From positions 1-20,072 of the forward strand of contig JAVYWK010000030.1 of assembly GCA_038727095.1 (NCBI GenBank): a DNA stretch of 20,072 bases, given 5' to 3'. Source of the stretch: Thermofilaceae archaeon (GTDB lineage: Archaea > Thermoproteota > Thermoprotei > Thermofilales > Thermofilaceae). Under the pieces are notes generated by a model. It did not search any database. It worked only from the letters and a program-made list of their open reading frames with translations, and was not told where the DNA came from. The position numbers and the translations under genes are program-made. Position 1 is the stretch's first letter, and each line of letters starts with the position of its first letter. Below, one piece after another: positions 1-20,072 of the stretch.

Positions 1-312
1 GTACTCACCAGCTACGTCATTTTTTCAAGGGGCGACGACCCCGTGAGGGTCGATATCGCCGTAGGCCGCGAGGATCTTGCAGCTGGCTCTTCTCGATTCG
101 TCCGCAGCCCACCGGATTCCTTCATCAGAGTTCTGCGGCAGCTGGCTTTCCTCTACGCTGGGAGGATGAGCTACAACGTGCTCCTCCTTGAGGCGGACAA
201 GAGGGTTAGGACGACCGCGGAAACGCTCGACCTGTACCACAAGCTCGCTATGAAGGAGCTCGGAGAGCTGATCGTGCACTCGCGCGGCGAGAGGCGGTAC
301 TTCATACCCTAG
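1..312 (+). CDS. nurA: 3' end of a probable NurA-family 5'-3' nuclease (runs off the window's left edge)
   Basis: Frame +1 is open from base 1: VLTSYVIFSRGDDPVRVDIA...RMSYNVLLLEADKRVRTTAETLDLY...*. 'Y..F....P.RVD' and 'SYNVLLLEADKRVR' resemble the NurA C-terminal GY(P/N)xxLxxA(H/D)xxV motif. Co-oriented with herA-mre11-rad50. Confidence 0.68.
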   Translation, partial: VLTSYVIFSRGDDPVRVDIAVGREDLAAGSSRFVRSPPDSFIRVLRQLAFLYAGRMSYNVLLLEADKRVRTTAETLDLYHKLAMKELGELIVHSRGERRYFIP

Positions 313-331: not shown

Positions 332-703
332 CTACTGCTTTGGCGGCCCCCGAGCTTCTCGCTCTAGCGCTTCGATTACGCTTTCCACCTTCCCGATGGC
401 GTACCTGACCTCATCAGGCTGGTAAACCCCCTCGTAGAAGGCCTCCTCGTGGAGCGTTTTCATTAGGTCGCTGTAGAGCGCGCGAAGATCCTCACGCCCT
501 ATCTCCCTCAGCACGCGCCTCCTCTCTGAGTGGCTTCTCGGCACAAACCCCTTTACAGAGCGTATGTACTCGTTCACAGCGACCAGGAGGGCGAGGAAGG
601 CCTTGTCAGCCGCATTGCGGTAGAGCAGGTGGTCTCTCAGCTTCTCAGCGCGCTCCAGCTCCTCACGCGCGTACCCTAAGATCTCCCTAGCCGTCTCGAA
701 CAC
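332..703 (-). CDS. PaREP1-family (HEPN-like) small helical protein
   Basis: 123 aa. RNAADKAFLA matches the PaREP1 QAxEKA(W/Y)xA-type motif; also RSHSERR and LHEEAFYEG (LHxxxFYE motif). GTG start preceded by GGTG. Confidence 0.8.
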   Translation of the reverse strand: MFETAREILGYAREELERAEKLRDHLLYRNAADKAFLALLVAVNEYIRSVKGFVPRSHSERRRVLREIGREDLRALYSDLMKTLHEEAFYEGVYQPDEVRYAIGKVESVIEALEREARGPPKQ

Positions 704-734
704 AGCACCATCCCCCAGTCAATAGGATTGGCGC

Positions 735-740
735 TTATAA
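735..740 (-). promoter_or_regulatory. Probable TATA box (TTATAA) for the PaREP1 gene
   Basis: TTATAA lies about 32 nt upstream of the minus-strand GTG at 703. It also argues against 728 being the real herA start. Confidence 0.4.
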
Positions 741-805
741 CGTTAGCTCGTCCCCGCCGCCGGCCTGCTCAAGTACTTACGGTATACTCAAAGCGATGCC
801 TACAT

Positions 806-2479
806 ATGCCTCGTTCTAGGCGTAACGTGGGGTTCGGCTTGCCGGCAGTCAGTGAGGCGCTTCTCCAACCTTCGGGCGAAAGGCTGCTCCACTTGAGGCA
901 GGTCGGCAGGATTGTGGAGGAAGCGACGCCGGACAGCTTCATCTTCGTTACCTCCAGGCGCGAGCACCCTCCGAAGTACGAGTACGTCGTAGTTCGATCC
1001 GTCGAGCCCGTGGGCGGGGAGGAGAGGGAGGTGCTGGTGCTGTGCCAGGTGAGGGGCGTCGTATCCCGGAGCGCAGCGTACAGCTCGAGGCTCGACTTGG
1101 AGACTCTGGAGCGCATCTACCAGGCCGGGATTGACGACGCGAACCTGCTCTGCCTGGCGAGGTCTCTCGGCTTCCTGGCGGAGGAGGATGGGCGCAAGGT
1201 CGTGCTCGCTCCGCGCCGCGCCTTCTACCCGGGAAACCCGGTCTACTTGGCCCCCGACGAGCTCGTGCGCGAGTTCTTCAGCTACCAGCCCGACGAGGGC
1301 ATCCACATAGGGAGGCTCGTCTCGCGCAGGACGGTGGACGTTTATCTCTCCGTCAACGGTTTCAGGAGGCATGTTGCGGTTATCGCGCAGACCGGGGCTG
1401 GCAAGTCCTACACGGTGGGCGTCATCCTGGAGGAGCTGATGAGGCTCGGCGCTACGGCCGTCGTGATCGACCCGCACGCAGACTACGTTTTCCTCAGCAG
1501 GGATAGAGACATGCGGCGGCACGAGTACTCCGACAGGGTCGTGATCTTCAGGAACCCGAACAGCACGGGCCGCTACGACCCCAGCCAGCTGGACAACGTT
1601 AGGGAGCTGACGGTCAAGTTCAGCGAGCTCTCCCCGGAGGCTGTGGCCAGGATAGCCGATATCCCCGAGAAGTGGACGAACGTGAGGAAGGCGATCAGGA
1701 AGGCGATCGAAGAGCTGCGGAGGCAGGGAGACTACGAGCTCGAAGGCCTTCTTGGAGCGCTGAAGAGGATGTCGAACGGTAGGGGCGAAGAGGCCCGAAG
1801 CGCCGAGAGGGCCTACCAGAACCTCCTGAGGCTTAGGAAGGTCAGGGTGTTTGGAGCCTACACGACCTCGGTGAAGGATGAGGTCCTCAAGCCGGGCCAG
1901 ATCAGCGTGCTCGACCTCTCCGGCCTGAACGACTCGAGCCAGGACTACATCGTGAGCTGGGTGCTTGAGGAAGTCTTCCGGTTGAGGCAGACGGGCGAGT
2001 TCCCGTGGCCGGTCTTCGTCGTCATCGAGGAGGCCCACCGCTTCGTGCCCGCGAAGAGCCTGGAGAGGCGCACGATGTCCTCCTCGATCATCAAGACGAT
2101 AGCGTCGGAGGGGAGGAAGTTCGGCGTCTTCCTGATCCTGGTGACGCAGAGGCCGAGCAGAATTGACGCGGACGCGCTCAGCCAGTGCAACAGCCAGATC
2201 ATCCTGAGGATCACGAACCCATACGACCAGCGGGCCGTGGCGGAGGCGAGCGAGAGGCTCGGGGAGGAGATAATGCGGGATCTGCCGGGCTTGAACGTTG
2301 GCGAAGCGATAATCGTCGGGGAGCTGACGAGGGTTCCCGTGATCGTGAAGGTGAGGAGGAGAGAGACGAGGGAGGGGGGCGCCGACATCGACCTGGTTGA
2401 GGAGCTCAGAAGGGCTAGACAGGTGCTGAACCTCACCCCGAGCCGCTACAGCACCAGCGGCCTATTGTCTGAGGTGTAG
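806..2479 (+). CDS. herA: HerA bipolar DNA translocase/helicase (FtsK-HerA ATPase with N-terminal HAS barrel)
   Basis: HAS-barrel-like N-terminus (VGRIVEEATPDSFIF), Walker A AQTGAGKS, IDPHADY, Walker B VVIEEAH, arginine finger EGRKFG, VTQRPS, SQCNSQI. The ORF is open from 728; in-frame starts at 806 (ATG), 827 (GTG) and 893 (TTG). The true start is uncertain. Confidence 0.93.
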   Translation: MPRSRRNVGFGLPAVSEALLQPSGERLLHLRQVGRIVEEATPDSFIFVTSRREHPPKYEYVVVRSVEPVGGEEREVLVLCQVRGVVSRSAAYSSRLDLETLERIYQAGIDDANLLCLARSLGFLAEEDGRKVVLAPRRAFYPGNPVYLAPDELVREFFSYQPDEGIHIGRLVSRRTVDVYLSVNGFRRHVAVIAQTGAGKSYTVGVILEELMRLGATAVVIDPHADYVFLSRDRDMRRHEYSDRVVIFRNPNSTGRYDPSQLDNVRELTVKFSELSPEAVARIADIPEKWTNVRKAIRKAIEELRRQGDYELEGLLGALKRMSNGRGEEARSAERAYQNLLRLRKVRVFGAYTTSVKDEVLKPGQISVLDLSGLNDSSQDYIVSWVLEEVFRLRQTGEFPWPVFVVIEEAHRFVPAKSLERRTMSSSIIKTIASEGRKFGVFLILVTQRPSRIDADALSQCNSQIILRITNPYDQRAVAEASERLGEEIMRDLPGLNVGEAIIVGELTRVPVIVKVRRRETREGGADIDLVEELRRARQVLNLTPSRYSTSGLLSEV

Positions 2480-2482
2480 CGC

Positions 2483-3658
2483 ATGGCGGTGGTCAAGGTT
2501 CTGCACACGGCCGACAACCACCTCGACCCGAAGCTGACCGAGCTGGGGGCGAAGTCTATGGAGCGTAGGAGGGACTTCCTCAGCGCATTCCAGCACGCAG
2601 TCAACTTCGCCCTCGAGCGGAGGCCGCACCTCTTTCTCGTCTCGGGCGACCTCTTCGACTCGGTGAACCCGAGGAACCCCGCGAGAACGCAGGTGATCAG
2701 GGCGTTCAGGAGGCTCCACTCGGAGGGTGTTAGGGTCTTCCTGATCGGCGGGAACCACGACATGCCGCGGAGCGTTGAGGAGGGGATGTCACCGCTCCAC
2801 GAGATTGAAGCTTCGGGGTACGCCAGGTTCTTCTCCTCCCCTGAGGCACCCGAAGTTGAGCACGTCAACGTGGACGGGCTGGACGTCGCTGTGGTGGGGC
2901 TTTCCTACAACCCGGCGGTGCCGCCCGACGCAAACCCCCTCAAGCACCTGAGCGTCAAGTTGCCGCGGGAGGGCGACTTGGCCATCGCAGTGCTCCACTA
3001 CAACTTCGCCGGCCTCCGAGTGCCCCCGTTCTGGAGGGCCCCGACCTTCTCGCGCGAAGACGTGCCGGGCGAGTACCGGTACTTAGCGCTGGGCCACATC
3101 CACTCCCGCGCGGTTGTAGACCTGGGTAGTACGGTCGTGGCGTACCCGGGGAGCACTGAGCGGAGGAGCTTCGGGGAAGAGGGAGACGAGGCGAAGGGCT
3201 TCCTCTGGGTCGAGCTGCAGGCCGAGGGCAAGCCGCGCCTGGAGTTCGTCGAGACGCCGGCCCGCCCGATGAGAACGGTGAGGGTGGAGGTCCCCCCGCG
3301 GGTTGAGGACCCGATCAGCCACATCCTCCAGAACCTGCCCCCCTCAGACCCGAAGCTACTGCTCAGGTTGATCGTGAGCGGGCTGCTCCCGCTCAGCGGA
3401 ATAGTGCGCTACAGCAAGGCAGCGCTGCTACGCCGCCTCGAGGGACGCTACTTCCACACCGTAATCGAGGATGGAGACCTGAGGTTCGAGGTTAGGACCT
3501 CAAGCGTTCCAGCAGCTGCGGCGAAGAGCCCCATCGAAGCTTTCCGAGTGGAGATGGAGGAGAGGATGAGGAGGGCTCAAACAGAGGAGGAGAGGGCGGT
3601 TCTAGAGCTCGCGTTTAAGCTCGGACTCCAGAAGCTCGAGGAGGCTGGCGCCTGGTGA
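2483..3658 (+). CDS. mre11: Mre11/SbcD metallophosphoesterase nuclease
   Basis: All five phosphoesterase motifs are present: HTADNHL, SGDLFD, GGNHD, VLHY, ALGHIH. Also YPGSTER and a C-terminal helical Rad50-binding-like region. GAGGTG RBS; 3 nt after herA. Confidence 0.93.
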   Translation: MAVVKVLHTADNHLDPKLTELGAKSMERRRDFLSAFQHAVNFALERRPHLFLVSGDLFDSVNPRNPARTQVIRAFRRLHSEGVRVFLIGGNHDMPRSVEEGMSPLHEIEASGYARFFSSPEAPEVEHVNVDGLDVAVVGLSYNPAVPPDANPLKHLSVKLPREGDLAIAVLHYNFAGLRVPPFWRAPTFSREDVPGEYRYLALGHIHSRAVVDLGSTVVAYPGSTERRSFGEEGDEAKGFLWVELQAEGKPRLEFVETPARPMRTVRVEVPPRVEDPISHILQNLPPSDPKLLLRLIVSGLLPLSGIVRYSKAALLRRLEGRYFHTVIEDGDLRFEVRTSSVPAAAAKSPIEAFRVEMEERMRRAQTEEERAVLELAFKLGLQKLEEAGAW

Positions 3659-3664
3659 CGCGGA

Positions 3665-6184
3665 GTGGTGAGGATCGTCAGCCTTAAGGCTGAAAACTTC
3701 CGACGCTTAAGCTTCGATAAGCCCCTCACCTTCCCCTCCGGTTTCATAATCATCCGCGGCAGGAACGAGGCGGGGAAATCCACGATCCTCGAGGCGATCC
3801 TGTACGGCATATACGGCGACCACAACGTAATCGGGGCCCTCAGAGGCGGGGAGAGGCTCGGTTTGGAGGGCATTGTCAACCACCGCGCCAAGAGGGCTAG
3901 AGTTGAGGTGGTCTTCGAGGTGGAGGGGAAGCGGTACAAGGTTGAGAGGATCCTGGAGAGGGAGGGGGAGAGCGCCCGGCAGGTTGACGCGAGCCTCGTC
4001 GAACTGTCTGAGGGGGAGGCGAAGCTGCTGGCCAAGGGCGTGACTAAGGTGAACGAGGTGGTTCAGAGGCTCATTCGGGTATCGTGGAAGGAGATGCTGG
4101 CGACGAACGTGATCGCCCAGAAGGATCTGGAGCGCATCATCGAGATGGGTAAGAGCGAGAGGGAGAAGATCATCAACATGATGATGGGCTTCGAAAGCTA
4201 CAACAAGGCGATCGAAAGGCTCGGAAAGGAGAGGAGGGAGCTCGAGAACAGCCTTCGAGAGGCTCGAGCTGAGGCTGAACAGCTGGCGAATAGGATCGCC
4301 GAGCTGGAGGAGAAGAGCGGGGAGCTCGATAGAAAGAGGGCTGAGCTGAGGCAGCTCGAAGAGAGGATCCCTCAGCTCGAGGCGGAGGAGAAGCGGGAGG
4401 AGGAAGCCTGCAATTACCTCAGCGAGGTCGAGGGTGTTTTGGTGCGGAAGCGCGATCTGAAGCGGCAGCTGGAAGCGGAGGGGAAGAGGGGGGAGGACAT
4501 TAAGAGTAGGCTAGAGGAACGCAGGGTGCGCATCGAGCGGCTCTCAGCGGAGCTTGAAGAGCTGAGAGCCCGGAGAGGCAGCCTAGACTCCGAGCTGAGC
4601 AAGGTGGAGAGCGAGCTGGAAAGAATCAAGCGAGAGCTCGAGCGGTTGAGCGAGCTGCATAGAAGGGCCGCCAACCTCTCAGAACGACAGAAACAGCTTG
4701 AAGCTGAGCTGGAGAAGGTTAGAAGAAGAATCGAGAGCTTGAGCCAGAGCGTCGGAGAGCAGAAAAGGGCAGCCCTCGAGAGGGAGAGGGCGGAAGCCGA
4801 GGAGGCCCTCAGAAGGGTGCGGGAAAGGGAAGCTGCGATCCGCGTACCCGCCTGGAGCGTCGCGGGCGCGATAACTGTCGCGGCTTTCTCACTCCTGGCT
4901 GCACTACTCCAGCCTGCCGCGCTGGCCGGCCTGGCTGTCGCCGGCTTACTGGTGCTGCTGGGAGTGCAGTCAAAGCACCGGCACCTACTGGAGCTAGCGA
5001 GGGAGGCGGACAAGCTCCGGGATAGGATCTCGAGCATCGACGCTGAGCTCAAGGAGTTTGAGAGGGGCGCGGGAGAGCTCAGGGAGCTGAGGAAGAGGGA
5101 GGCTGAACTGGAGGATCGGCTTAAAGAGCTGAGTTGGCAGTCAAGCGAGCTAGCGACGGAGCTGGGAATCCATGGTGGGCTCGATTCGCTTGTGGAAGAG
5201 TTGGGAAAGCTGGTGAAGAACGCTGAAGATCGGGCGAGGGCAGCTTCATCGACTCGCGAATCGATAATCCGTCAAATCCACGGAATTGACGCGACCATTA
5301 AAGCTCGTGAGGAGGAGCGGGAACGCCTCCTGAAGGAGGTGGAGGAGCTTGAAGAAGAGTTGAACCGTACAACTCAATACCTGCTGAGCTTGGAGGAGGA
5401 GTACTTGAAGCTGACCATTCCGGAGCCACCCTTTGAGATTGAAGGGCTCCTCCCGCGGCCATCCGAGGGCGACTACGAGCATATCAGGGAGTTGAGGCAG
5501 GAGAAGGAGAGGCGCCTAAGGGAGGTGCAGAAAGAGCTCGCAGAAGCGAGGGAGGGGGCGAAGAGGCTTAGGGAGTGGATCGAGGCGACCGAGAGGGAGC
5601 TGGAGCAGCTGCCTAAGCTCAAGGCTAGGTTAGAGGAGCTTAGGCGCTCGCTCGGGGAACTCGAACTGAAGGTCAAGGCAATGAGCAGCGCGATCGCGGT
5701 CCTCGAGGAGGTGGCGAGGAAGAGGAGGGAGGCCTTCGCCCCCAGCGTGGGGGAGAACATGAGTTGGATCGTCTCCTACATCACCGACGGCAGGTACAAA
5801 GCGGTGGATGTCAAGCCTGACACCTACGACGTCCAGGTCTACGATTCGGAGGCGGGCAGGTGGGTGCGCCGCGACATCTACAGCGGCGGAACGAACGACC
5901 AGTTCCTCCTAGCGATGCGCATCGCCTTCACCCTCTCCCTCCTACCTGCCGCGAAGGGCATCTACCCGAGGTTCCTCTTCCTAGACGAGCCGCTCGGCTC
6001 CTCCGACGAGGAAAGGCGAAACAGGATCATCGATTTGCTCAGCAAGGAGCTAACCCGCGTTTTCGACCAAGTCTTCCTCATCACGCACGTCGACATCGAT
6101 GAGCCGCCGGGCTCCACCGTTATCGTGATGAATGAGGGCAGGCCGGAGGAAATCCGCAAGGCTCCTCTCCAGGAATCAGTTTAG
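3665..6184 (+). CDS. rad50: Rad50/SbcC-like SMC ATPase lacking a zinc hook, with a central hydrophobic hairpin
   Basis: Walker A GRNEAGKST, Q-loop VIAQKD, a long E/R/L/K coiled coil, signature YSGG, Walker B/D-loop FLFLDEPLGSSD, H-loop LITH. No CxxC; uncharged 38-mer at nt 4853-4966. Confidence 0.9.
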   Translation: MVRIVSLKAENFRRLSFDKPLTFPSGFIIIRGRNEAGKSTILEAILYGIYGDHNVIGALRGGERLGLEGIVNHRAKRARVEVVFEVEGKRYKVERILEREGESARQVDASLVELSEGEAKLLAKGVTKVNEVVQRLIRVSWKEMLATNVIAQKDLERIIEMGKSEREKIINMMMGFESYNKAIERLGKERRELENSLREARAEAEQLANRIAELEEKSGELDRKRAELRQLEERIPQLEAEEKREEEACNYLSEVEGVLVRKRDLKRQLEAEGKRGEDIKSRLEERRVRIERLSAELEELRARRGSLDSELSKVESELERIKRELERLSELHRRAANLSERQKQLEAELEKVRRRIESLSQSVGEQKRAALERERAEAEEALRRVREREAAIRVPAWSVAGAITVAAFSLLAALLQPAALAGLAVAGLLVLLGVQSKHRHLLELAREADKLRDRISSIDAELKEFERGAGELRELRKREAELEDRLKELSWQSSELATELGIHGGLDSLVEELGKLVKNAEDRARAASSTRESIIRQIHGIDATIKAREEERERLLKEVEELEEELNRTTQYLLSLEEEYLKLTIPEPPFEIEGLLPRPSEGDYEHIRELRQEKERRLREVQKELAEAREGAKRLREWIEATERELEQLPKLKARLEELRRSLGELELKVKAMSSAIAVLEEVARKRREAFAPSVGENMSWIVSYITDGRYKAVDVKPDTYDVQVYDSEAGRWVRRDIYSGGTNDQFLLAMRIAFTLSLLPAAKGIYPRFLFLDEPLGSSDEERRNRIIDLLSKELTRVFDQVFLITHVDIDEPPGSTVIVMNEGRPEEIRKAPLQESV

Positions 6185-7030: not shown

Positions 7031-7822
7031 ATGATTGAGCTGAAAAATCTCCGGGTATCTTACGACCGAAGAGAAGTCGTAAAGGGCGTGTCCACAGTCT
7101 TCAACAACAAGCACGTTGTGCTGGGCCCGAACGGGCATGGGAAAACCACTCTGTTTAAAGCAATAGCAGGGTTGGCGCCCTACAAGGGTGAAGTCATCAT
7201 TGAGGGAACCTCCCTCGCTAAGTTGAAAGAGGGTCTAGGGTTGCTGGCCATCAACCTACCTGAGGTGTACAGGCTGGTCCCCCTTTCTGCTTGGGAGACA
7301 GCTAAACTGTACTCCGACATTATGGATGTGGATCTCGCGCTGGTTGAGCAGATGCTATCAGAGCTCGGCATATCTCGCAAAGATCTCGAGAAAAAGAAGC
7401 TGTGGGAGCTCTCAGCCGGGACGCTGAAGGCCTACTGCACGGCGCTTTCGGTGGCGAGCGGCGCCAAGAACGTCTTACTCGACGAGCCCTTCGAGCAACT
7501 GGACCCCGCTAGGAAGGGGCGCCTCGCTCAGATGCTGGAGCGCTACAGCGGAACGCTGGTGCTGAACACCCATGAGACGTGGATCCTTAACCGGCTCCCC
7601 GACTGGTACGTCCACGTTATGGTGGACGGCCGCCTCTACGGCCCCGCTCCCGCGGGGAGGCTGGCTTCCGCCAAGATAACAACCAGCTCTGTGGAGCATG
7701 CGTTCCTCAGAGTGCCGATCGGGGATGCAACCGTAAGCTTCGTTGAGACAGGGGCTGGCGAGCCCGTTTCAAGCCTTTTAACTTTAGATAGGCTTTACGA
7801 CATCGTTCTGAAGGGTGGTTGA
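7031..7822 (+). CDS. ABC transporter ATP-binding protein
   Basis: Walker A GPNGHGKTT, signature variant LSAG, Walker B VLLDEPF, LDP, H-loop NTHE. Confidence 0.92.
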   Translation: MIELKNLRVSYDRREVVKGVSTVFNNKHVVLGPNGHGKTTLFKAIAGLAPYKGEVIIEGTSLAKLKEGLGLLAINLPEVYRLVPLSAWETAKLYSDIMDVDLALVEQMLSELGISRKDLEKKKLWELSAGTLKAYCTALSVASGAKNVLLDEPFEQLDPARKGRLAQMLERYSGTLVLNTHETWILNRLPDWYVHVMVDGRLYGPAPAGRLASAKITTSSVEHAFLRVPIGDATVSFVETGAGEPVSSLLTLDRLYDIVLKGG

Positions 7823-8660
7823 GGTGACGAGCTACCTGATCTACAAGTTTAAGAGTCTCATGACGAACAGAAGCGGGCTCTTCTGGGGTATCGGCTTCAT
7901 GCTGTTCTGGGCCGTCATGTGGGTTTACGTATTCCTCCGCGTGGAAGAACCCCTACCACCCCGCGAAGTGCTCGAGCAGGTTCTCAAAGTAGTATCAGCG
8001 CTCGGCTACTCGTACCTCGGCGTGCTCTCAATGTCCTCAGTCGCAATCGGGTTAACCTCCTACAAGCTTTACTCCTCCAGCGCTTCGGCCTTCGTCGTGC
8101 GCTTCTCGCGGCTTACGCCTTTTAGGCTCTTACTCGAAGATTTCGTCTCCGGGGTCGCGGCGATAATCTCGTACACTTTAGCCGTCGTAGCGGCTGTAGC
8201 AGGGCTCATGTACCTGAGATTCAGCATCCTCTTGTTCCCCGAGAAGCCGGTGGAACTTCTCGCCTACATAGTGTTGGCCGGTGTTGAGTGGTACTGGCTT
8301 AGCTACCTACTTTGCACGGTTATGCTCGCGTTAAGAAAGCCTAGATCGCAGCTTTTGAACATGCTACCCTTGATGATCGGCTTCGGCATCTACTCGACGC
8401 TCTGGCTAGATCCCGGGAAACTGGTTTACGCGCTACCCATAGCCCCATTGGCCCCTCTAGTTGTCAGCTCTGCATCAAGCATCGATCCCGTAGCGGGAGG
8501 ATGGATCCCCTATCAACCCTGGCGGAATCCTGGCGCTGCCACGGTCGTCGAGCCGCTCCCAGCTCTGATCTCAACTTTTGCCTGGATACTCTCGCTCGCC
8601 CTGGCATCCCTCCTCCTGGCGAAGAGGGTTACCGGAATCCCGATGGAGGAGGTTGGTTAG
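7815..8660 (+). CDS. ABC-2-type exporter permease (about 6 TM)
   Basis: Multiple long hydrophobic segments; N-terminal 'NRSGLFWGIGF' is typical of ABC-2 permeases; overlaps the ATPase by 8 nt. Confidence 0.8.
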   Translation: MVEVTSYLIYKFKSLMTNRSGLFWGIGFMLFWAVMWVYVFLRVEEPLPPREVLEQVLKVVSALGYSYLGVLSMSSVAIGLTSYKLYSSSASAFVVRFSRLTPFRLLLEDFVSGVAAIISYTLAVVAAVAGLMYLRFSILLFPEKPVELLAYIVLAGVEWYWLSYLLCTVMLALRKPRSQLLNMLPLMIGFGIYSTLWLDPGKLVYALPIAPLAPLVVSSASSIDPVAGGWIPYQPWRNPGAATVVEPLPALISTFAWILSLALASLLLAKRVTGIPMEEVG

Positions 8661-8672
8661 CTGGTAGGGAGC

Positions 8673-9305
8673 ATGAAGACGGAGGGCTTCGAGCTGGGTA
8701 ACGCGGTCGCGCTAGCCGATCTAGCTCGGAAGATGAGAAGGTACTTCCTAACGGTCCAGATGGCTTACGCGTTCCTCTTCAACGCCACGATAATTTGCGC
8801 CTACTGGCTGGCGGTGATATCCTTGGCTTTCCTGTTCGACCTTGATGAGCTACTTCTGTTCTGGGTGGCCGCTCTCCTCATCCTTATACCAGTCGTGCTC
8901 CTAGCTGCCTACGTGAGTGGGGTTGCCTCCCCGAGTGCCACTTCCCAGGTCTGGAGGACTCGAGGCAAGTACTTCGGGCTGTTATTCGCCGTGCCTTTCG
9001 TTATCACGTATTCCATGCGCCTGCCACCGTACATGTACTCCGTAGCTTGGTACCCCGCGCTCGCGGTCTCACTGCTCCTCGTTCACGTCTTCATCGAGAG
9101 AGAATCCTACCGGCGTGGCGAAGTCCTGGCTATGCCCTTCCTCGCCTCATCGGTACTTACGCTGTTGACCTCCCCTCTCATCTTCATCATAGTTGGTAAA
9201 TCGCCACTCGCTGCTTGGACGCTAGCTCTATCCTTCATGCTCACCAGCTACACTTTTGCCGCCTTCATAGCACTATACAAGGCTAGGAGGGCTCTCGTGG
9301 GTTAG
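8673..9305 (+). CDS. Polytopic membrane protein of unknown function
   Basis: 210 aa with about 6-7 hydrophobic helices; in an operon with the ABC genes and the regulator. Confidence 0.8.
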   Translation: MKTEGFELGNAVALADLARKMRRYFLTVQMAYAFLFNATIICAYWLAVISLAFLFDLDELLLFWVAALLILIPVVLLAAYVSGVASPSATSQVWRTRGKYFGLLFAVPFVITYSMRLPPYMYSVAWYPALAVSLLLVHVFIERESYRRGEVLAMPFLASSVLTLLTSPLIFIIVGKSPLAAWTLALSFMLTSYTFAAFIALYKARRALVG

Positions 9306-9306
9306 G

Positions 9307-9678
9307 ATGGAGGAGCTCTCCGGGCTCCTGCACGAGGTTGACTCGGATCTGCTCAACCCCAAAAGGTTTGCGATCGTCAGTCTCCTCTACGCGATCGGGC
9401 CGATGAGCCTCAGGGAGCTAAGGCGAACTCTTAACCTCACGTGGGGGGATCTGGACAGCAACATACGCAGGCTCCACGAGAAGGGTTACGTACGCCTCTG
9501 GAGGGGGCTCGGCAGCGGCCCCCGAATCCTAGAAGTGAAAGCGGAGCTCACCGAAGCTGGAATCCGAGAGTACGAGAAGCTAGCTCAACAGCTAAGCGCA
9601 GTCCTGCGGAAGGTGGAAGAAGCCAGGAAGCTTCCCGCCAACTGCGATCAGAGCAGCCTAGCTCAAGCGTCACGCTGA
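9307..9678 (+). CDS. Winged-HTH transcriptional regulator (ArsR/MarR-like)
   Basis: LLNPKRFAIVSLL...MSLRELRRTLNLTWGDLDSNIRRLHEKGYV...LTEAG; 1 nt after the upstream stop. Confidence 0.88.
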   Translation: MEELSGLLHEVDSDLLNPKRFAIVSLLYAIGPMSLRELRRTLNLTWGDLDSNIRRLHEKGYVRLWRGLGSGPRILEVKAELTEAGIREYEKLAQQLSAVLRKVEEARKLPANCDQSSLAQASR

Positions 9679-9881
9679 TGCTGCGGCAACACATGAAAGC
9701 CGCGAGGCGTATCACAAAAGCGGAGTCATTCTATTCACTTTCTGACAGTGCCTCCTGTGAAGCTTTTGAAACATCCAGCGTCAGCTTCGCTTGCTTTCTT
9801 CGCTGCCCCAATGGGTACGCGACCTTCGGCGTGTGCGACGTGAAGCTTAATATGTGAAGGATCGAAACCTTTCCCGTCTTT

Positions 9882-10268
9882 ATGGTGCTACCCGGCGAGT
9901 GGGTTGAGAAGGCTGACGTCTTCTTGCGTGAAGCTAAGAGGCACATTGAGGAGGGGATTTACTGGCTGTCGTGCTTCGAGGCCCAGCAGGCTGCTGAACT
10001 ATACCTAAAGGCGCTTCACGTAGCGGCTGCAGGCCTCTACCCCTTCACTCACGACCTCTCCGAGCTACTTGAGTCACTGAAAGCTCTCAACTTCAACCCC
10101 CCAGACGATCTTTTCGTGATTGCCGACGCCCTCACAGCCCACTACACTCTCTCGAGGTACCCGGGGAGGAAACCCGTTTCTTACACGAAAAGCCTCGCTG
10201 AGAGGTGCGTTTCATATGCGGAAAAAATCATTGAGTGGGTTAAGCGAGTATCTGAGATGGAGGGCTGA
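9882..10268 (+). CDS. HEPN domain protein (HEPN-MNT pair)
   Basis: W..KA..FL.EA, CFEAQQAAELYLKA, THDLSELL, HYTLSRYP. Confidence 0.9.
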   Translation: MVLPGEWVEKADVFLREAKRHIEEGIYWLSCFEAQQAAELYLKALHVAAAGLYPFTHDLSELLESLKALNFNPPDDLFVIADALTAHYTLSRYPGRKPVSYTKSLAERCVSYAEKIIEWVKRVSEMEG

Positions 10269-10608
10269 ACTCCTGAAGCGGCAAAACGAGCTCCTAGACG
10301 AATTCGTGAAGAATGTCGCGGAAAGGCTCGGTAGGTGCGCAGTGCTACTCTTCGGTTCTAGAGCCCGCGGCAACCACATACCCTACAGCGACTTCGACAT
10401 CGCTATCGTTGTGGAGGAAGCCGTAGACAAGCTCTCCTTAATTGAGGAGCTGCGAGCCTTGAAGCCGAGAGGGCTACCTCTCGACCTGATAATCTTCGAG
10501 AGAGAGGATCTGAAGAGCCCAGTCGTAAAGAAGATGCTTGAAGGCGCCATTATTGTTTACGATAGCTTACAGCTCCATTTCCCGGACAACGGAGATCATG
10601 AAGCATAG
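10231..10608 (+). CDS. Minimal nucleotidyltransferase (MNT) antitoxin
   Basis: LLFGSRARG....SDFDIAIV and LDLIIF. ORF open from 10120; TTG at 10231, overlapping the HEPN 3' end, is the more plausible start. Confidence 0.88.
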   Translation: MSGLSEYLRWRAELLKRQNELLDEFVKNVAERLGRCAVLLFGSRARGNHIPYSDFDIAIVVEEAVDKLSLIEELRALKPRGLPLDLIIFEREDLKSPVVKKMLEGAIIVYDSLQLHFPDNGDHEA

Positions 10609-11811: not shown

Positions 11812-14367
11812 ATGAGTGATGAGGCTGCACCTTCAGCTGTTAAGCTCGTAGCTCCAGCTTTGTTACTCGCATTCATTGCTGCAGTTGCGCTCGCCCAGCC
11901 TTCGTACGTCAGTCAGTACTTCGAGGTTTACGACTACGCTAACGCTGGAGAGAGCTACCTGAAGGCTGTGGCCACTGCGATGGAGAGCGCGTTGGAAGCT
12001 GTGGTCGGCCGTGGAGGCTCCTTAGCACGGCCGTGCTCGGGGGAGCGGTACACAGTCAATGTTGTCCGCATCTCGGGTGGCGAGATGGGCTTCACAAAGT
12101 ACCAGCTAGCGGCCGATGCCGCCGGGCGAGTGAAGGACGCGTGCATCGTCTGGGTGAACATCTCTACTGGCCTCTCGGAGACCATGCTGAGGGCTACCGC
12201 CTACCACGAGATCGTCCACGTGGCTCAAGCGAGCTACTTCAGGTACGCGAGCGTGCCGCAGGCGCGACCGTGGTACATCGAGGCTTCGGCAGAGGGGTTC
12301 GGGAGCGCTCTCTCAGGCGTGTGCGTCTGGACGCCCTACTACTTCAACTACGGCCTCTACAGGTACAACCCCTACAGGTTCGCGGGAACCGACTCGCGCT
12401 GCTACGCCTTAGGGGCGTTCTACTACTGGATTCTAGCATCGGGCTACTCCGGCTTGGATCAGGCCCTCAGGGGCTCCCTCTCCGGGGAAAGCGTGGTATC
12501 CAGCTGGGTGAACAACGCCTACCTCGACTTCCTCCTCGCCCTAACCAAGGGTGTAACGCTCTGCGGGACGCGCTACGAGCCCGATTTCACCCGCGTGTAC
12601 TTGCCCGGTGGAACGTGGAGCACGACGGTGACCATCGACGGCTTGAGCGCAGCCTACTACAGGATCGAGCTCCCCGCGCCGGGCCCCATCCTGGTGACAG
12701 TCACAGGCAACGTGAGGAGCAACATCGCTCTGGGGCAGCCATTCACTGTGCAGAACACGAGCCTATCGATGGTGCTCGCAAACCCGGGGTTAGAGTCGAC
12801 CACGGTCAGCGTGACAGTCCACTACCGCCCACCAATGGAGGCTAAGCTCGTGCAGGGCTCCTACGACGGCTGGAGGAGGGTCCTTCAACTGACGATCCAC
12901 GTGCTTTACGCCGGCCGACCCGTCACTGGGCTGATAGAAGTGGACGGGATCCCCGTCGAAGCCTCAAACGGTTACGCGACCTTCTCGCTGACGGGCGTTT
13001 CGTGGGGCGATCACACTCTAAGGATCTCGTACGCCGGAGCCGAAGCCGGTTTGAGAGTCAGGGTTGCGAGACCCGCAGCTTCGCTTGCCACCCACCCGGT
13101 GCTATACCTAACCCCCACGGGTCGTGGCGAGATCAGACTGCTGCTGAGGAATCCGGGCGATGTCAGCGTGAAGGCGCAGGTGATGCTCGAGGCACCCCCG
13201 TTCATCCGGTCCGAACCCCTCTGGGTGGATGTGCCTCAGAAGGACTCGAGCACCGGCCTACCGTTCACCGTTGTGTCATCGCCCGATCCAGCAACCCTGA
13301 CCGCGAGCGTGTGCTACGCGCCGGGCGATTGCTCGCGGCTCCAGCTCAACGTAACCCCAGTGGAGCTGAAGGTGCTGCGAGCACACTACGACTCCGCCGC
13401 GAACAGAACGCTCGTTGAAGCCCTGGCCGAACCCGTTCAGCTCCGCTTGTTAGCCGCTATCGAGGGTCTGTGGGGGGTCGCGTGGTTCAAGCACTCCACC
13501 TACTACACCGGCGGGCTTAACGTATCCATACCACAGCCCATAATCGAGCTCCACGCCCGACCCGAGCTCGTCGCACCCTCCTGGCTTACCCTCCACGTGA
13601 ACGCGACCGTCGGAGTCAGCGATCATTGCCCCATCTTCAACGTGAGCTACCTGCTGCAAGCCGTCGTAAACGGGGTTCCGCTCGGGGTTGTCACCCTCTC
13701 CTGCGGAGACGCGCGAGCCTTGTCGACCATCATCAACGTCACGTACAGCGGTGCAAGCCTGCCGCTAACCGGCCCCTTCGTCAACCCCGTTCTAGTGAGC
13801 GTGCCTAGGCCTGCGCTCGAGGTGTTATCAGCCGACTGGTTCCTCGACGACTTCGGTAGCACGGTGAGAACCGAAGTCGCGGTGAAAGGGCCCTGTAAGT
13901 TCCTGATCATGGGGCGCGAGGTTGTAAATGATACCTTGACTATCGAGAAGAGGCTAGAGAAGGGTGTTAGAGCGCTCGAAATCGATCTGGAGTTCGAGGA
14001 GCTGCGCATCGAAATGCCGAGAGTGGTGTTGGAGCTGTCGATCCCGCCAATCGCTCTGGCTGGGCTGCCGATTCAGGCAACAGTGGCCCTGCGCACGATT
14101 GCGCGCGTGAACGCTACGGTATCCATCCTCGTATCCGGCGGAGAGGTTGAGCGCATCCACCTCGTGAAGCTGGACGGGGAAGCGATCGAGAGGGTATTCA
14201 GCTTGCAGCTACCCCATCCGGGAGTCTACAGTGTAGTCGCGCAGGCGTGGTTCGCCAACGCGTCGGCAAGCCTCATCTACGTCAAAGTGCGGGGGATTAG
14301 GGTGGAAACCCCCATCTTCGCCCTCGTCGGGAGCCGAGCCCCCCGTAAGGGTGCTGCTCTACGCTGA
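11812..14367 (+). CDS. Large secreted/surface protein, N-terminal part: signal peptide, gluzincin-like HExxH domain, beta-rich (Ig-like) domains; frameshifted
   Basis: Signal peptide KLVAPALLLAFIAAVALA/Q; YHEIVH (nt 12205-12219) plus WYIEASAE; many N-x-S/T sequons; reading frame lost at the C6 tract 14339-14344. Confidence 0.8.
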   Translation: MSDEAAPSAVKLVAPALLLAFIAAVALAQPSYVSQYFEVYDYANAGESYLKAVATAMESALEAVVGRGGSLARPCSGERYTVNVVRISGGEMGFTKYQLAADAAGRVKDACIVWVNISTGLSETMLRATAYHEIVHVAQASYFRYASVPQARPWYIEASAEGFGSALSGVCVWTPYYFNYGLYRYNPYRFAGTDSRCYALGAFYYWILASGYSGLDQALRGSLSGESVVSSWVNNAYLDFLLALTKGVTLCGTRYEPDFTRVYLPGGTWSTTVTIDGLSAAYYRIELPAPGPILVTVTGNVRSNIALGQPFTVQNTSLSMVLANPGLESTTVSVTVHYRPPMEAKLVQGSYDGWRRVLQLTIHVLYAGRPVTGLIEVDGIPVEASNGYATFSLTGVSWGDHTLRISYAGAEAGLRVRVARPAASLATHPVLYLTPTGRGEIRLLLRNPGDVSVKAQVMLEAPPFIRSEPLWVDVPQKDSSTGLPFTVVSSPDPATLTASVCYAPGDCSRLQLNVTPVELKVLRAHYDSAANRTLVEALAEPVQLRLLAAIEGLWGVAWFKHSTYYTGGLNVSIPQPIIELHARPELVAPSWLTLHVNATVGVSDHCPIFNVSYLLQAVVNGVPLGVVTLSCGDARALSTIINVTYSGASLPLTGPFVNPVLVSVPRPALEVLSADWFLDDFGSTVRTEVAVKGPCKFLIMGREVVNDTLTIEKRLEKGVRALEIDLEFEELRIEMPRVVLELSIPPIALAGLPIQATVALRTIARVNATVSILVSGGEVERIHLVKLDGEAIERVFSLQLPHPGVYSVVAQAWFANASASLIYVKVRGIRVETPIFALVGSRAPRKGAALR

Positions 14368-15175
14368 ACCCTCCGTACCCCTCACGGTGAACGTGACTGT
14401 AACGGGCTGCGGCTACCCATTGGAGCTCGCGGTAGATGTAAACTCGACCATGCAGCTGGAGTTCAACCAGGTCTGCACAGCTGTGGTGGAGGCGAGGTTC
14501 CTGAACTATACCTCCACAGCTGCCACCCACTGGGACGTACTCACCCTCACTTTCGAGAGGGTGCTAGGTTATCACGAAGGAGGCTTGATCGTCCCCAACG
14601 GGACGCTGAAACCGGTGGCTCTATTTGCCAACGCCACACCTGCACCCGCCAAAGCCACCGTGAACGGCCAGCCGGTGTACACGGTTTCAAAGCCGGGAGG
14701 CTACCTACTGAAGCTGGAGGCCGAGCTCTGGGGGGTCCGCAACGAGACGACGCTGACCGTCTACGCGGTGCCCGAGCAGCTGTACCTTAGCGCGCTTGGG
14801 CTGCTCGAAAAGCTTGGCAAACCACCGTATTTCGCCAGTAGCTTAAAGCTCGCCGTGGTATCTGGCAGGTGGGAGACAGTGAAGCTCTTCGTAGACACCT
14901 ACATCTCAGCTAGACAGGCAAGCCCCGAGCCGGTTGCCCTACTCGCCTCTATGCTGGCTGAGAAGTGGGCTCGAGAGGGCGTAGAAACGTACCTGAGCTC
15001 TGCGCAGACGCTACTAGCCTTAAGACCCGTTATATACGCCGTAATCATCGTCACAGCAGCCCTACTCATCAGGAAAAGAGCTATCCGAGTAAAAGCGCGG
15101 AAGGGAAGCATCACGGGTGATCAGCCTCAACCCGGAAACCCGGAAGCGCCTGCCAGTGCGGGCTCCACCGCTTAG
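14351..15175 (+). CDS. C-terminal continuation of the surface protein, with membrane anchor
   Basis: Deleting one C at 14339-14344 fuses ...GSRAP-VRVLLYAEP... Same beta-rich, sequon-rich composition; C-terminal TM PVIYAVIIVTAALLI followed by the basic tail RKRAIRVKARK. Confidence 0.75.
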   Translation: MLLYAEPSVPLTVNVTVTGCGYPLELAVDVNSTMQLEFNQVCTAVVEARFLNYTSTAATHWDVLTLTFERVLGYHEGGLIVPNGTLKPVALFANATPAPAKATVNGQPVYTVSKPGGYLLKLEAELWGVRNETTLTVYAVPEQLYLSALGLLEKLGKPPYFASSLKLAVVSGRWETVKLFVDTYISARQASPEPVALLASMLAEKWAREGVETYLSSAQTLLALRPVIYAVIIVTAALLIRKRAIRVKARKGSITGDQPQPGNPEAPASAGSTA

Positions 15176-15268: not shown

Positions 15269-15706
15269 TTACCGGTCGAGGATCTGCGGCAGTACTCTGA
15301 CACCAGGAATTTTGTAGAAGTGCCTGTCGAATGTGTACGCCTCCTCGACTCCCGCCTCCTTCATCTTCACGTACGCGAGAGCATCATTTACGCTCACAGC
15401 ATAACGCTCAGCTAAGTCCACTGCGGTACCGAAATCTGAAGGCTCCACGGGTAGGATCTCTATGTTCTCCTTCGAGAGGATGCCGGCCACCAGCTTGATA
15501 CTGTAGGATAACCCCAGCCTCGCTTCAACTATGTTCGCCACCTCGCTTACGTGGACAACGGTTGTGACCACAGGCTCCCCTTCCTCAACTCTCACCAAAA
15601 CCTCCTGCGCAGCCCTCTTAACCGCAGCCTCCCTCGGGGTCAAGCTGCGCTTCGGCTTCAAGTAGGCGTGCAGAAACACGCTGGAGTCCAGGAACCTAGC
15701 CCTCAC
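15269..15706 (-). CDS. vapC: VapC PIN-domain toxin
   Basis: FLDSSVF, HVSEV, SVNDAL, YTFDRHF: the conserved acidic PIN residues are present. Confidence 0.92.
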   Translation of the reverse strand: MRARFLDSSVFLHAYLKPKRSLTPREAAVKRAAQEVLVRVEEGEPVVTTVVHVSEVANIVEARLGLSYSIKLVAGILSKENIEILPVEPSDFGTAVDLAERYAVSVNDALAYVKMKEAGVEEAYTFDRHFYKIPGVRVLPQILDR

Positions 15707-17777: not shown

Positions 17778-18248
17778 TCAACCAATCGAGTGCTCTCGCG
17801 GATTCTGCTCAAGGCTTCCCGGCTTCAGCTTCTCCTTCAGCTTTCTCCCCCTCTCAATCGCTTCGAGCTTCTCCTCGAGGCTCCTGTGGTACTCGATTCT
17901 GTGCTTTACATCCTCCCAGACTTTTCTCCAGTAGTAGAAGTACTCCGAGATTTCAAGCTCGTCCCCGAAGAGGACGATGTAGTTATCGATGATCGAGGCT
18001 TTCACCTTCAATGGTAGCAACTCGAAAACCCTCACATCGTAGATCGGCTTAAACCTGCCGATGAGACTGCGCTGAATCTCCAGGTTCTTACCCTGATCCT
18101 TCAGCCTCGTAATCACAGCTACGTCAATGTCCGACCCCTCTCTAAACTCCCCCGTCACGTAGGAGCCGAAGACAACCGCTTCGAAGCTCGAGAGAGCTTG
18201 GAGATCCCTCTTAATCTCCTCGAGACTGGGCTTCGAGCGCATTCTCAA
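17778..18248 (-). CDS. MNT (MntA-like) nucleotidyltransferase antitoxin
   Basis: VVFGSYVTGEFREGSDIDVAV and YDVRVFELLPLKVK; GGAGGG RBS; overlaps the 3' end of hepT. Confidence 0.9.
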   Translation of the reverse strand: MRMRSKPSLEEIKRDLQALSSFEAVVFGSYVTGEFREGSDIDVAVITRLKDQGKNLEIQRSLIGRFKPIYDVRVFELLPLKVKASIIDNYIVLFGDELEISEYFYYWRKVWEDVKHRIEYHRSLEEKLEAIERGRKLKEKLKPGSLEQNPREHSIG

Positions 18249-18614
18249 CCCTCCTTATGAACTCGAAAAGCGTCTCCTTAACCCTATCGACGGACTCGAG
18301 AACCAGCTTCTTATCCAACCTGTTGTACCTGTGAACCAGCCAGTTCCTCAACCCATTGCACATCTTCAGCTTTGTAGCTAGCTCCTCATCGATCACTCCG
18401 ATTTCTCGGAGGTACTCGATATTCGTGTAATCGTCTTCAACGCGCCTGCCGAGATCCTTGACAAGCATCGCACAGGTATCCATGGCAGCTTCGATCGAAG
18501 TAAGAGATTGTAAAACGTCCCGCTAACCTCAATCGGCCTTTCAGGCCGTTCAGGGATCTCGCTCAAAGCCTCAATGATATACTCGATCTTCTCCTTGTAC
18601 CGCTGAAACCTCAT
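18211..18614 (-). pseudogene. HepT/DUF86 HEPN RNase, frameshifted
   Basis: Two ORFs (18393-18614 and 18211-18483). Adding one base near 18500 restores MRFQRYKEKIEY...FYNLLTSIEAAMD...GLRNWLVHRY (Rx4HxY), 134 aa. Confidence 0.85.
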
Positions 18615-19731: not shown

Positions 19732-20072
19732 ATGGAGAGATATCAGCCGGGCTACTCTTCACTTAACTCTCTCATCGAGGCTAGGATTAGGGAGGTGAAC
19801 GACGCTCTGCAGCTCCTCAGGAGTCTCGTGGCTAGGCGGTTTGAGGAGTTGACGGTTTACGAGAGGCTTGCTATCAGGTACCTCGTCATACAGCCTGTTG
19901 AAGCCGCGGCTGGCATATGCGTACGCCTGCTCTTGAGGGTTTACGGCGAGACGGCTGAAGGCTACCCGGAGTGCTTTACGAGACTCGCGTCGAAGGGGGT
20001 TCTACCCGAGAGCTTAGCCCTCAGGCTGGCTTCGGCGGCGAGGCTTAGAAACCTCCTCGTCCACAGGTACTG
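19732..20072 (+). CDS. HepT/DUF86 HEPN RNase (runs off the window's right edge; absent from the ORF track)
   Basis: MERYQPGY...RLAIRYLVIQPVEAAAGIC...GYPECFTRLASKGVL...RLRNLLVHRY (Rx4HxY); CTTAAAT TATA-like box at 19701-19707. Confidence 0.88.
   Translation, partial: MERYQPGYSSLNSLIEARIREVNDALQLLRSLVARRFEELTVYERLAIRYLVIQPVEAAAGICVRLLLRVYGETAEGYPECFTRLASKGVLPESLALRLASAARLRNLLVHRY

Follow-up and report, generated by a model that had tools for sequence, protein, structure and literature searches.

An apolar hairpin in place of the zinc hook in an archaeal Rad50 lineage: a probable membrane anchor for a NurA–HerA–Mre11–Rad50 module

The zinc hook, a CxxC motif whose job is dimerisation at the apex of the coiled coil, is treated as a universal and critical part of Rad50. 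A departure from this arrangement has been described in Bacillus subtilis: SbcE (YhaN) is a Rad50/SbcC-like ATPase with long coiled coils and no CxxC, which interacts with the Mre11-like SbcF (YhaO) encoded beside it and takes part in repairing double-strand breaks (Krishnamurthy et al., Nucleic Acids Res 2009/2010; PMC2811018). In the sections of that paper that deal with the protein, SbcE is also reported to act in transformation and to sit at the competence pole; its ‘unique central domain’ is hydrophobic in its first half, includes a conserved proline, proved insoluble when expressed in E. coli, and is not called transmembrane in those sections. Here we describe a Rad50-type ATP-binding cassette (ABC) ATPase of 839 residues (P0001) that has two coiled-coil arms, a hydrophobic apex and no zinc hook. 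It is encoded at nucleotides 3665..6184 of the forward strand in a 20,072-nucleotide stretch of DNA from a hot-spring Thermofilaceae archaeon (contig JAVYWK010000030.1, positions 1 to 20,072, assembly GCA_038727095.1), called the window below.

The translation of 3665–6184 contains a single cysteine, C249, and no CxxC, just as a first-pass annotation of this DNA had reported. That annotation had also drawn attention to an uncharged segment, W397–V434, split by a central Gln-Pro and flanked by basic residues. Its coordinates (4853–4966) are exact, and it lies inside a run of 43 residues (394–436) without D, E, K, R or H, which is the longest such run in the protein, the next longest being 11 residues; D, E, K and R together make up 38% of the chain, and runs of at least 38 uncharged residues are expected about 1e-5 times per protein of this composition. 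Mean Kyte–Doolittle (KD) hydropathy is ~2.0 for residues 397–415 and ~2.05 for 418–436, and the 19-residue KD average (KD19) peaks at 2.2, at residue 414, above the classical threshold of 1.6 that we used as the criterion for a hydrophobic block. Because their helical moments are 0.58 (397–415) and 0.15 (418–436), as against 1.13 in the coiled-coil arms, the two halves of the hairpin are not amphipathic.

The hairpin thus comprises a first hydrophobic helix, W397–L415 (4853..4909, forward strand), a tight turn at Q416–P417 (4910..4915, forward) and a second hydrophobic helix, A418–S436 (4916..4972, forward), which runs on into the descending arm; R393 stands before it and K437-H438-R439-H440 after it. 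An AlphaFold2 (AF2) model built on a 63-row alignment has a mean predicted local distance difference test (pLDDT) score of 86.4, and of 72–87 over residues 391–440. Its elements follow one another as a head (1–175), helices at 177–362 and 365–391, a break at 392–395, a helix at 396–412, a loop at 413–417, an unbroken helix at 418–500 and onward, an arm extending to residue 706, and the strands of the C-terminal head from 711. This order agrees with the initial placement of the segment near the midpoint of the coiled coil, with heads ending at about residue 175 and resuming at about 690; taken with the position of the block in homologs, centred at 0.45–0.51 of their length, it predicts that the hairpin forms the apex of the coiled coil.

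The segment recurs in independently sequenced material. DNA contigs from three independent studies span 4853–4966 without insertions or deletions, and the best-supported differences listed within the hairpin are synonymous changes at 4927, 4933 and 4942 and a single replacement, V430L, at 4952. Across 18 metagenome runs on hot springs, drawn from eight studies, 43–79% of the words sampled from the rad50 gene were present. One run from a metatranscriptome library yielded contigs of 90–99% similarity in 26 of 30 bins, including 4892–5226, with the four bins at 4505–4840 left uncovered; such contigs are a weak hint of expression and not proof of it, DNA carry-over being possible.

Conservation of the hydrophobic block among homologs had been proposed as a check on the first-pass annotation, and the block proves to be kept. 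At least 120 database homologs were found, and among the matches listed the central hydrophobic block is present in all and CxxC in none; they include Thermofilum pendens, T. adornatum, Infirmifilum lucidum and Dictyoglomus, together with metagenome-assembled genomes labelled Thermoproteota, Njordarchaeia, Bathyarchaeia and Nitrososphaeria. For counting we used 116 proteins, namely P0001 and 115 homologs of at least 700 residues (five fragments shorter than this were dropped). All 116 have a KD19 of at least 1.6 centred at 0.45–0.51 of their length and none has CxxC. The uncharged block reaches at least 30 residues in 105, Lys or Arg occurs within six residues on both sides in 113, and in 90 the central 40% of the block contains a proline; in 11 proteins a charged residue at the turn splits it.

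Two further surveys gave similar counts. A scan of species-representative genomes returned 58 loci, 45 of them with a full-length gene (at least 700 residues), from Thermofilaceae, Bathyarchaeia, Nitrososphaerota, Asgard lineages and some bacteria: the block is found in 44 of these 45 genes and CxxC in none. A profile search of 1.84 billion cluster representatives retrieved 5,625 proteins at E <=1e-30; among the best 150 of these (50% clusters), 142 are at least 640 residues long, and a hydrophobic segment is present in 137 of the 142 and CxxC in none. As controls, in each of ten hook-type Rad50s from the same class a CPLC or CPVC lies at the centre, and no uncharged block exceeds 12 residues.

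In the 63 aligned homologs hydrophobic residues make up on average 82% of the block and charged ones 1.7%, while the top-residue frequency is only 0.31. Columns 400–434 are essentially uncharged: the proportion of charged residues is 0–5% in columns 400–415 (helix 1) and 0% in columns 418–431 (helix 2). The basic flanks, too, extend across the family (Lys or Arg in 63% at position 393, 75% at 437 and 66% at 439), and proline is the commonest residue at column 417 (30 of 63). Small residues occupy position 409 in 86% and position 426 in 92% of homologs; they stand at a distance of 8 and 9 residues from the turn, at the point where hairpin helices would be expected to cross each other. The apolar block between the arms is a real, non-random and conserved feature, and the hydrophobic hairpin is a family trait in which the property is kept rather than the sequence.

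That the protein belongs with Rad50 is indicated by its head, its arms and its neighbour: it has the full set of ABC head motifs (Walker A, Q-loop, signature, Walker B, D-loop and H-loop) and a long antiparallel coiled coil, and mre11 lies alongside. The Walker A motif (P-loop), GRNEAGKST, spans G32–T40 (3758..3784, forward strand), and its residues G32, N34, E35, G37, K38 and S39 are invariant in the 63 homologs, as is Q152. At the other end of the chain (5882..6088, forward) lie the signature motif S740-G741-G742, Walker B D774-E775, the D-loop S779–D781 and the H-loop H808; S740, G741, D774, E775, D781 and H808 are invariant, and G742, S779 and S780 are conserved in at least 90%, so that the head motifs are indeed intact, as first described. 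Pfam places AAA_23 (65.7 bits) and SMC_N (41.9 bits) on the protein, both above cut-off. The closest solved relatives by sequence are the Rad50 heads of P. furiosus (1e-18), M. jannaschii and T. maritima, and the best fold match (Foldseek) is full-length Chaetomium Rad50, 7zr1 (9e-24). What P0001 lacks of a standard Rad50 is the CxxC hook and a score reaching the NCBI curated equivalog cut-offs: the best NCBIfam model, Rad50 PRK03918, gives 148.9 bits against a cut-off of 700, and Rad50_Sulf 93.6 against 1000. The Pfam zinc hook, PF04423, has no match in the 839-residue protein and none above cut-off anywhere in the genome; the same model detects six of six hook-type relatives at E <=1e-3. In PADLOC the best match is Lamassu LmuB, at 141 bits. 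We rejected an identity as LmuB: the neighbours are NurA, HerA and Mre11 and not LmuA-like effectors, and the Mre11 has no PADLOC match.

The rad50 gene is the last of a nurA–herA–mre11–rad50 operon. It starts 6 nucleotides after the end of mre11 (2483..3658, forward; 391 residues), whose product carries the phosphoesterase metal-binding motifs DNH, GDLFD, GGNHD and GHIH, scores 41.6 bits with Pfam Metallophos and 90 bits with the best NCBIfam model, Mre11_Sulfo (cut-off 500), and is the only Mre11 match in the genome. Upstream of mre11 is a gene for a HerA-type hexameric helicase/translocase (728..2479, forward), a 583-residue reading frame whose start is uncertain (TTG at 728 or ATG at 806); HerA homologs have 533–558 residues. 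It scores 135 bits with the Pfam DUF87/HerA central domain and 211 bits with NCBIfam helicase_HerA, below the cut-off of 970, and it also matches ‘anti-phage-associated HerA’ models at 104–129 bits. The 3' end of nurA, its last 103 codons, occupies 1..312 (forward) and runs off the start of the window. On its own this fragment has no Pfam match; it clusters with a gene of 437–453 residues directly upstream of herA in six of six other hairpin-type loci, and two of these upstream genes match Pfam NurA with 47 and 57 bits against a cut-off of 21. In the window a PaREP1/HEPN-like gene (332–703, reverse strand; Pfam PaREP1, 33.6 bits) separates nurA from herA, and the closest relative (locus L048) has a PaREP1 insertion at 5194–5565 (reverse) that is 91% identical to it; of the six other hairpin-type loci, four have overlapping nurA and herA genes.

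The association extends well beyond this archaeon. In the class, mre11 adjoins the hairpin-type or hook-type rad50 in 16 of 16 context loci, and the four-gene order recurs in six of six other hairpin-type loci; for the 58 loci of named genomes the corresponding counts are 46 and 27. Both nurA and herA lie upstream of rad50 in Thermofilaceae and Asgard loci, unlike in soil Bathyarchaeota and Nitrososphaeria, which make up most of the at least 13 loci (with at least 3.5 kb of upstream sequence) that have mre11–rad50 only. In L064, L071, L073, L076, L078, L081, L084, L085 and other soil Bathyarchaeota and Nitrososphaeria loci there is no nurA or herA within ~5 kb upstream.

The source genome is assembled in 52 contigs and is 92% complete; the window holds its only Mre11 and its only Mre11-linked Rad50. 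We looked for a second, hidden hook-type Rad50 and dismissed the idea, for the sole other match to P0001 is an arcadin-4-like ATPase of 802 residues, related to structural maintenance of chromosomes (SMC) proteins (G000:C1:113102-115510, reverse strand, equivalent to L113:3103-5511). The Rkd4 model aligns with that protein from end to end (265 bits, below the cut-off of 860); a CPVC stands at its centre, at residue 436, a hydrophobic block is lacking, and its gene does not adjoin mre11. Reading frames resembling it, of 802 and 804 residues, occur in two other genomes (G051 and G057). Three more NurA–HerA pairs are present in the genome, on contigs C14, C9 and C40 (loci L114, L115 and L116), all with HerAs below the NCBI HerA cut-offs; the NurA beside HerA was recognised by our own profile at C14 and C40 and by a Pfam NurA match upstream of HerA at C9.

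Beyond what the first-pass annotation proposed, the whole four-gene operon forms a separate lineage that excludes the hook-type operon. P0001 and a hook-type Rad50 (that of L044) served as queries against the 120 genomes of the class; the hits were bimodal, and the threshold of E <=1e-40 was chosen after the gap had been seen. Among the 41 genomes of the window's order, 21 have the hairpin type, 14 the hook type, none both and six neither. Within a single family (f1), the hairpin type occurs in genera g1, g3, g5 and g9 and the hook type in g2, g4, g6, g7 and g8; the hairpin type is present in all eight genomes of g9 and in all five of g1 (four tallied and the window's own). Sixteen loci were compared: in the hook-type operon nurA encodes 348–405 residues, herA ~500–530, mre11 ~380 and rad50 900–920 with CxxC near 455, and in the hairpin-type operon the corresponding figures are 437–453, 533–583, ~390 and 786–839.

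The separation is mirrored in HerA, which is 52–94% identical within the hairpin type and ~33% identical between types. When 46 HerA sequences were placed in a quick maximum-likelihood tree, a branch with a Shimodaira–Hasegawa-like approximate likelihood ratio test (SH-aLRT) support of 98 set the 34 hairpin-operon HerAs, the window's among them, apart from the hook-type HerAs of sister genera; those 34 come from Thermofilaceae, Nitrososphaerota, Brockarchaeota, Bathyarchaeota and Asgard lineages. The Rad50 tree, of 56 rows and 310 columns, was restricted to the head and excluded the apex and arms. One of its branches (SH-aLRT 96) has on one side the nine hook-type rows from archaea together with the arcadin-4-like outgroup; all hairpin-type rows, archaeal and bacterial, fall on the other with one bacterial hook-type row and the Acidobacteriota protein of locus L110. 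Forcing the Thermofilaceae hairpin type and the order's hook type into one clade cost 104 log-likelihood units, with p = 7e-5 in the approximately unbiased (AU) test. We therefore reject a local hook-to-hairpin swap inside the window's order, with the proviso that the group tested was named after the tree had been seen. These were quick searches with long bacterial branches and groups defined by the trait itself; within those limits, and because HerA co-diverges with Rad50, the four-gene module of the hairpin type is as a whole a separate lineage of long standing rather than the outcome of a recent loss of the hook.

The reading best supported by these features is that the hairpin probably inserts in the cytoplasmic membrane and anchors there the Rad50 of the archaeon's only resection module. 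We infer insertion from the hydrophobicity of the block, its basic flanks, its lack of amphipathicity, the conservation of hydrophobicity without that of sequence, and the minimal turn. On this account P0001 is the Rad50 subunit of the archaeon's only NurA–HerA–Mre11–Rad50 DNA-end resection module: from an intact ATPase head, antiparallel arms of ~215 and ~270 residues lead to an apex at which the CxxC hook is replaced by two apolar helices of ~19 residues, joined by a turn of 2–5 residues. The head must be cytoplasmic, and therefore the only topology compatible with function would be in–out–in, with both ends of the hairpin, and hence the arms and head, on the cytoplasmic side. Coiled coils rise 0.15 nm per residue, and an N-terminal arm of ~215 residues would hold the Mre11–Rad50 head at most ~30 nm from the membrane. 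More weakly, the hairpins of two protomers might lie against each other in the lipid, holding the arm tips together as the hook does; when two copies of residues 345–485 were folded together (63-row alignment) the score was 0.01 against a mark of 0.42, which speaks neither for nor against pairing. The module presumably still performs housekeeping break resection, because it contains the only Mre11–Rad50 in the genome, does not occur together with the classical operon and has its four genes in the order found there.

Several points weigh against this account. The case for insertion rests on hydrophobicity scales, and the geometry behind the apex placement was taken from the order of elements in the AF2 secondary structure and not from coordinates. 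Helix 1 of P0001 is Ala-rich, with a KD mean of 2.0 compared with a family median of 2.5. Should the host have a thick membrane of the tetraether monolayer kind, helices of ~17–19 residues would be short for it, and monotopic or re-entrant insertion becomes possible. Because five of the 142 close representatives from the profile search (P0339, P0343, P0348, P0355 and P0366), as well as the sole exception among the 45 full-length genes of named genomes (L110:6001-9120, from an Acidobacteriota genome), have neither hook nor block, the wider clade as a whole does not strictly require the apex element. Finally, equivalence of function to the classical machine is something that we infer, because Rad50, Mre11 and HerA all score far below their NCBI cut-offs.

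The strongest competing explanation, although in our view an unlikely one, dispenses with the membrane: the hairpins of two or more protomers would shield one another in a soluble helical bundle made of protein alone, which would take the place of the hook as the core of a dimer or oligomer. A replacement for a dimerising hook would be expected to dimerise, the small residues at 409 and 426 point to tight helix packing, and the Ala-rich helix 1 of P0001 is in keeping with this; the insolubility of the SbcE central domain, as reported in the relevant section of PMC2811018, would fit an exposed greasy interface equally well. However, packing into a four-helix bundle would hide only about half of each helix, whereas columns 400–434 are essentially uncharged on every face, and the moments of 0.58 and 0.15 are well under the 1.13 of the soluble arms. 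A low top-residue frequency with hydrophobicity maintained is likewise the pattern of a lipid-facing surface rather than that of a specific protein interface, and the bundle must also contend with the basic residues at both ends of the hairpin.

A second alternative, less likely still, concerns the work the module does: rather than a housekeeping resection machine, it may be a mobile system, of a defence-like kind or linked to DNA uptake, whose task is to receive foreign or imported DNA as it arrives at the membrane. The LmuB score of P0001 is similar to its best Rad50 score (141 and 149 bits), and its HerA matches the anti-phage-associated models. The spread over Thermoproteota, Asgard lineages and bacteria is patchy, with descent from the order's hook type rejected by the AU test (p 7e-5), and the window is rich in toxin–antitoxin-type genes. 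SbcE has its role in transformation at the competence pole (PMC2811018, in the sections cited above), and in some Thermoproteales Rad50 and HerA genes are reported to adjoin the Ted DNA-import genes (PMC9905601). Yet the module contains the only Mre11 and Rad50 of the genome, and in the 35 genomes of the order that have either operon it never co-occurs with the hook type. Its four genes stand in the same order as those of the hook-type operon, and its presence throughout g9 (8 of 8) and g1 (5 of 5) resembles that of a core gene rather than an accessory island. We also considered, and set aside, a link to a Ced-type importer: CedB matches in the genome reach only 25–33 bits against a cut-off of 700, so that no CedB-type importer scores above cut-off. 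Membrane tethering and the handling of imported DNA are not mutually exclusive.

Thermofilaceae are hyperthermophiles, whose membranes are probably tetraether monolayers. In the least likely of the three alternatives the hairpin, with its helices of ~17–19 residues, its turn of 2–5 residues and no extracellular loop, might be a monotopic or re-entrant wedge in the cytoplasmic leaflet, or bind another hydrophobic surface, and so associate with such a membrane without spanning it, but helices of 19 residues fall in the usual spanning range, and the charged turn residue tolerated in 11 of 116 proteins would be easier to accommodate at the aqueous outer face than in lipid.

Returning to the membrane-spanning anchor, we put forward a broader proposal, tentatively and with rather less confidence than we have in anchoring as such. 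In Thermofilum and its kin, and in many Bathyarchaeia, Nitrososphaerota and Asgard archaea, the whole resection machine might be tethered to the membrane, with paired hairpins forming a four-helix bundle in lipid in place of the hook; end processing would then be confined to a submembrane shell of ~30 nm, and could possibly be coupled to DNA entering or anchored there. If the hairpin does lie in the membrane, these organisms have fastened to their cell envelope a machine for end resection that was believed to move freely through the nucleoid, and views of break recognition, of end tethering and of the role of the coiled-coil apex would change. A large clade has this membrane-type hairpin in place of the hook; the clade holds the only Rad50 of the cultured Thermofilum pendens, T. 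adornatum and Infirmifilum lucidum and of several Asgard lineages, and the classical operon is missing from the genomes of the cultured hairpin-type archaea and of several Asgard lineages. The hairpin clade is a natural experiment on the purpose of the hook, and cultured hosts exist.

The remainder of the window is occupied by genes of other kinds. Downstream of rad50 an ABC-transporter-type ATPase gene (7031–7822, forward strand) is followed by unmatched reading frames at 7815–8660 and 8673–9305. A gene of this transporter type also lies near rad50 in two other Thermofilaceae loci, L047 and L048, directly downstream on the same strand only in L048, and is absent from other hairpin-type loci; it is probably not part of the module. 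Toxin–antitoxin-type genes comprise a winged-helix regulator with a HEPN and nucleotidyltransferase pair (9307–10608, the pair at 9882–10608), a PIN gene (15269–15706, reverse) and a nucleotidyltransferase with HepT (17778–18483, reverse), and a further HepT-like gene stands at the end of the window (19732–20070). An 851-residue reading frame in a GC-rich stretch (11812–14367, forward), and a 274-residue one that overlaps its end (14351–15175), have no Pfam or NCBIfam match at E <=0.01.

Compared with canonical archaeal Rad50 (P. furiosus, M. jannaschii, Sulfolobus; in the window's order, L044:4632-7370), P0001 shares the head motifs, the arms and the operon position after mre11. It differs at the apex, where the canonical protein has the CxxC hook and P0001 has a 38-residue apolar hairpin instead. 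Hairpin-type Rad50s are also shorter (786–842 residues, as against ~900–920 for the hook type in the order), and the heads of the two types are only ~25–32% identical, HerA and Mre11 having diverged alongside. In open PubMed Central and bioRxiv texts we found no description of a hookless hairpin Rad50 for archaea, while the ABC-ATPase classification of Krishnan et al. 2020 may bear on priority; the hairpin-type family is large and barely described.

Hairpin-type ATPases also occur in bacteria (Dictyoglomus P0122; Chloroflexota L109 and L111); they have the central block, no CxxC and an adjacent mre11, as here. In the head tree they group with the archaeal hairpin type (SH-aLRT 96), a placement that their long branches leave unsure. 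They are longer, with ~900–1000 residues or more, and no nurA or herA was seen upstream in the loci examined.

The first-pass annotation had suggested a bacterial precedent in YhaN/SbcE-type proteins, and the published description lends this support. As the sections cited above have it, SbcE is hookless with a hydrophobic central domain that is not there called transmembrane (PMC2811018); with this, the sequence-level predictions of that annotation, as far as tested, have all held. Direct kinship was harder to trace. The Pfam family PF13514 (AAA_27), which we take to be the YhaN-type AAA domain, matches P0001 weakly (25.2 bits against a cut-off of 22) and over residues 7–51 only. We discarded it as a marker of kinship with YhaN: 46 of 50 family members match, but so do three of six hook-type Rad50s (21–27 bits). 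A database search from the Dictyoglomus member P0122 gave no match named YhaN, and among ESM Atlas neighbours, which we regard as a lead only, are Bacillota clusters with PF13514 in 80% and 76% of members. Like SbcE, P0001 is hookless and has a hydrophobic centre (397–434) containing a proline, P417. The Bacillus operon, yhaO–yhaN–yhaM, is without NurA and HerA, whereas that of the window has both, and B. subtilis also retains a hook-bearing SbcC, whereas here the hairpin type is the sole Rad50. Among proteins so far described, B. subtilis SbcE/YhaN is the closest precedent for the hairpin-type Rad50 of this archaeon.

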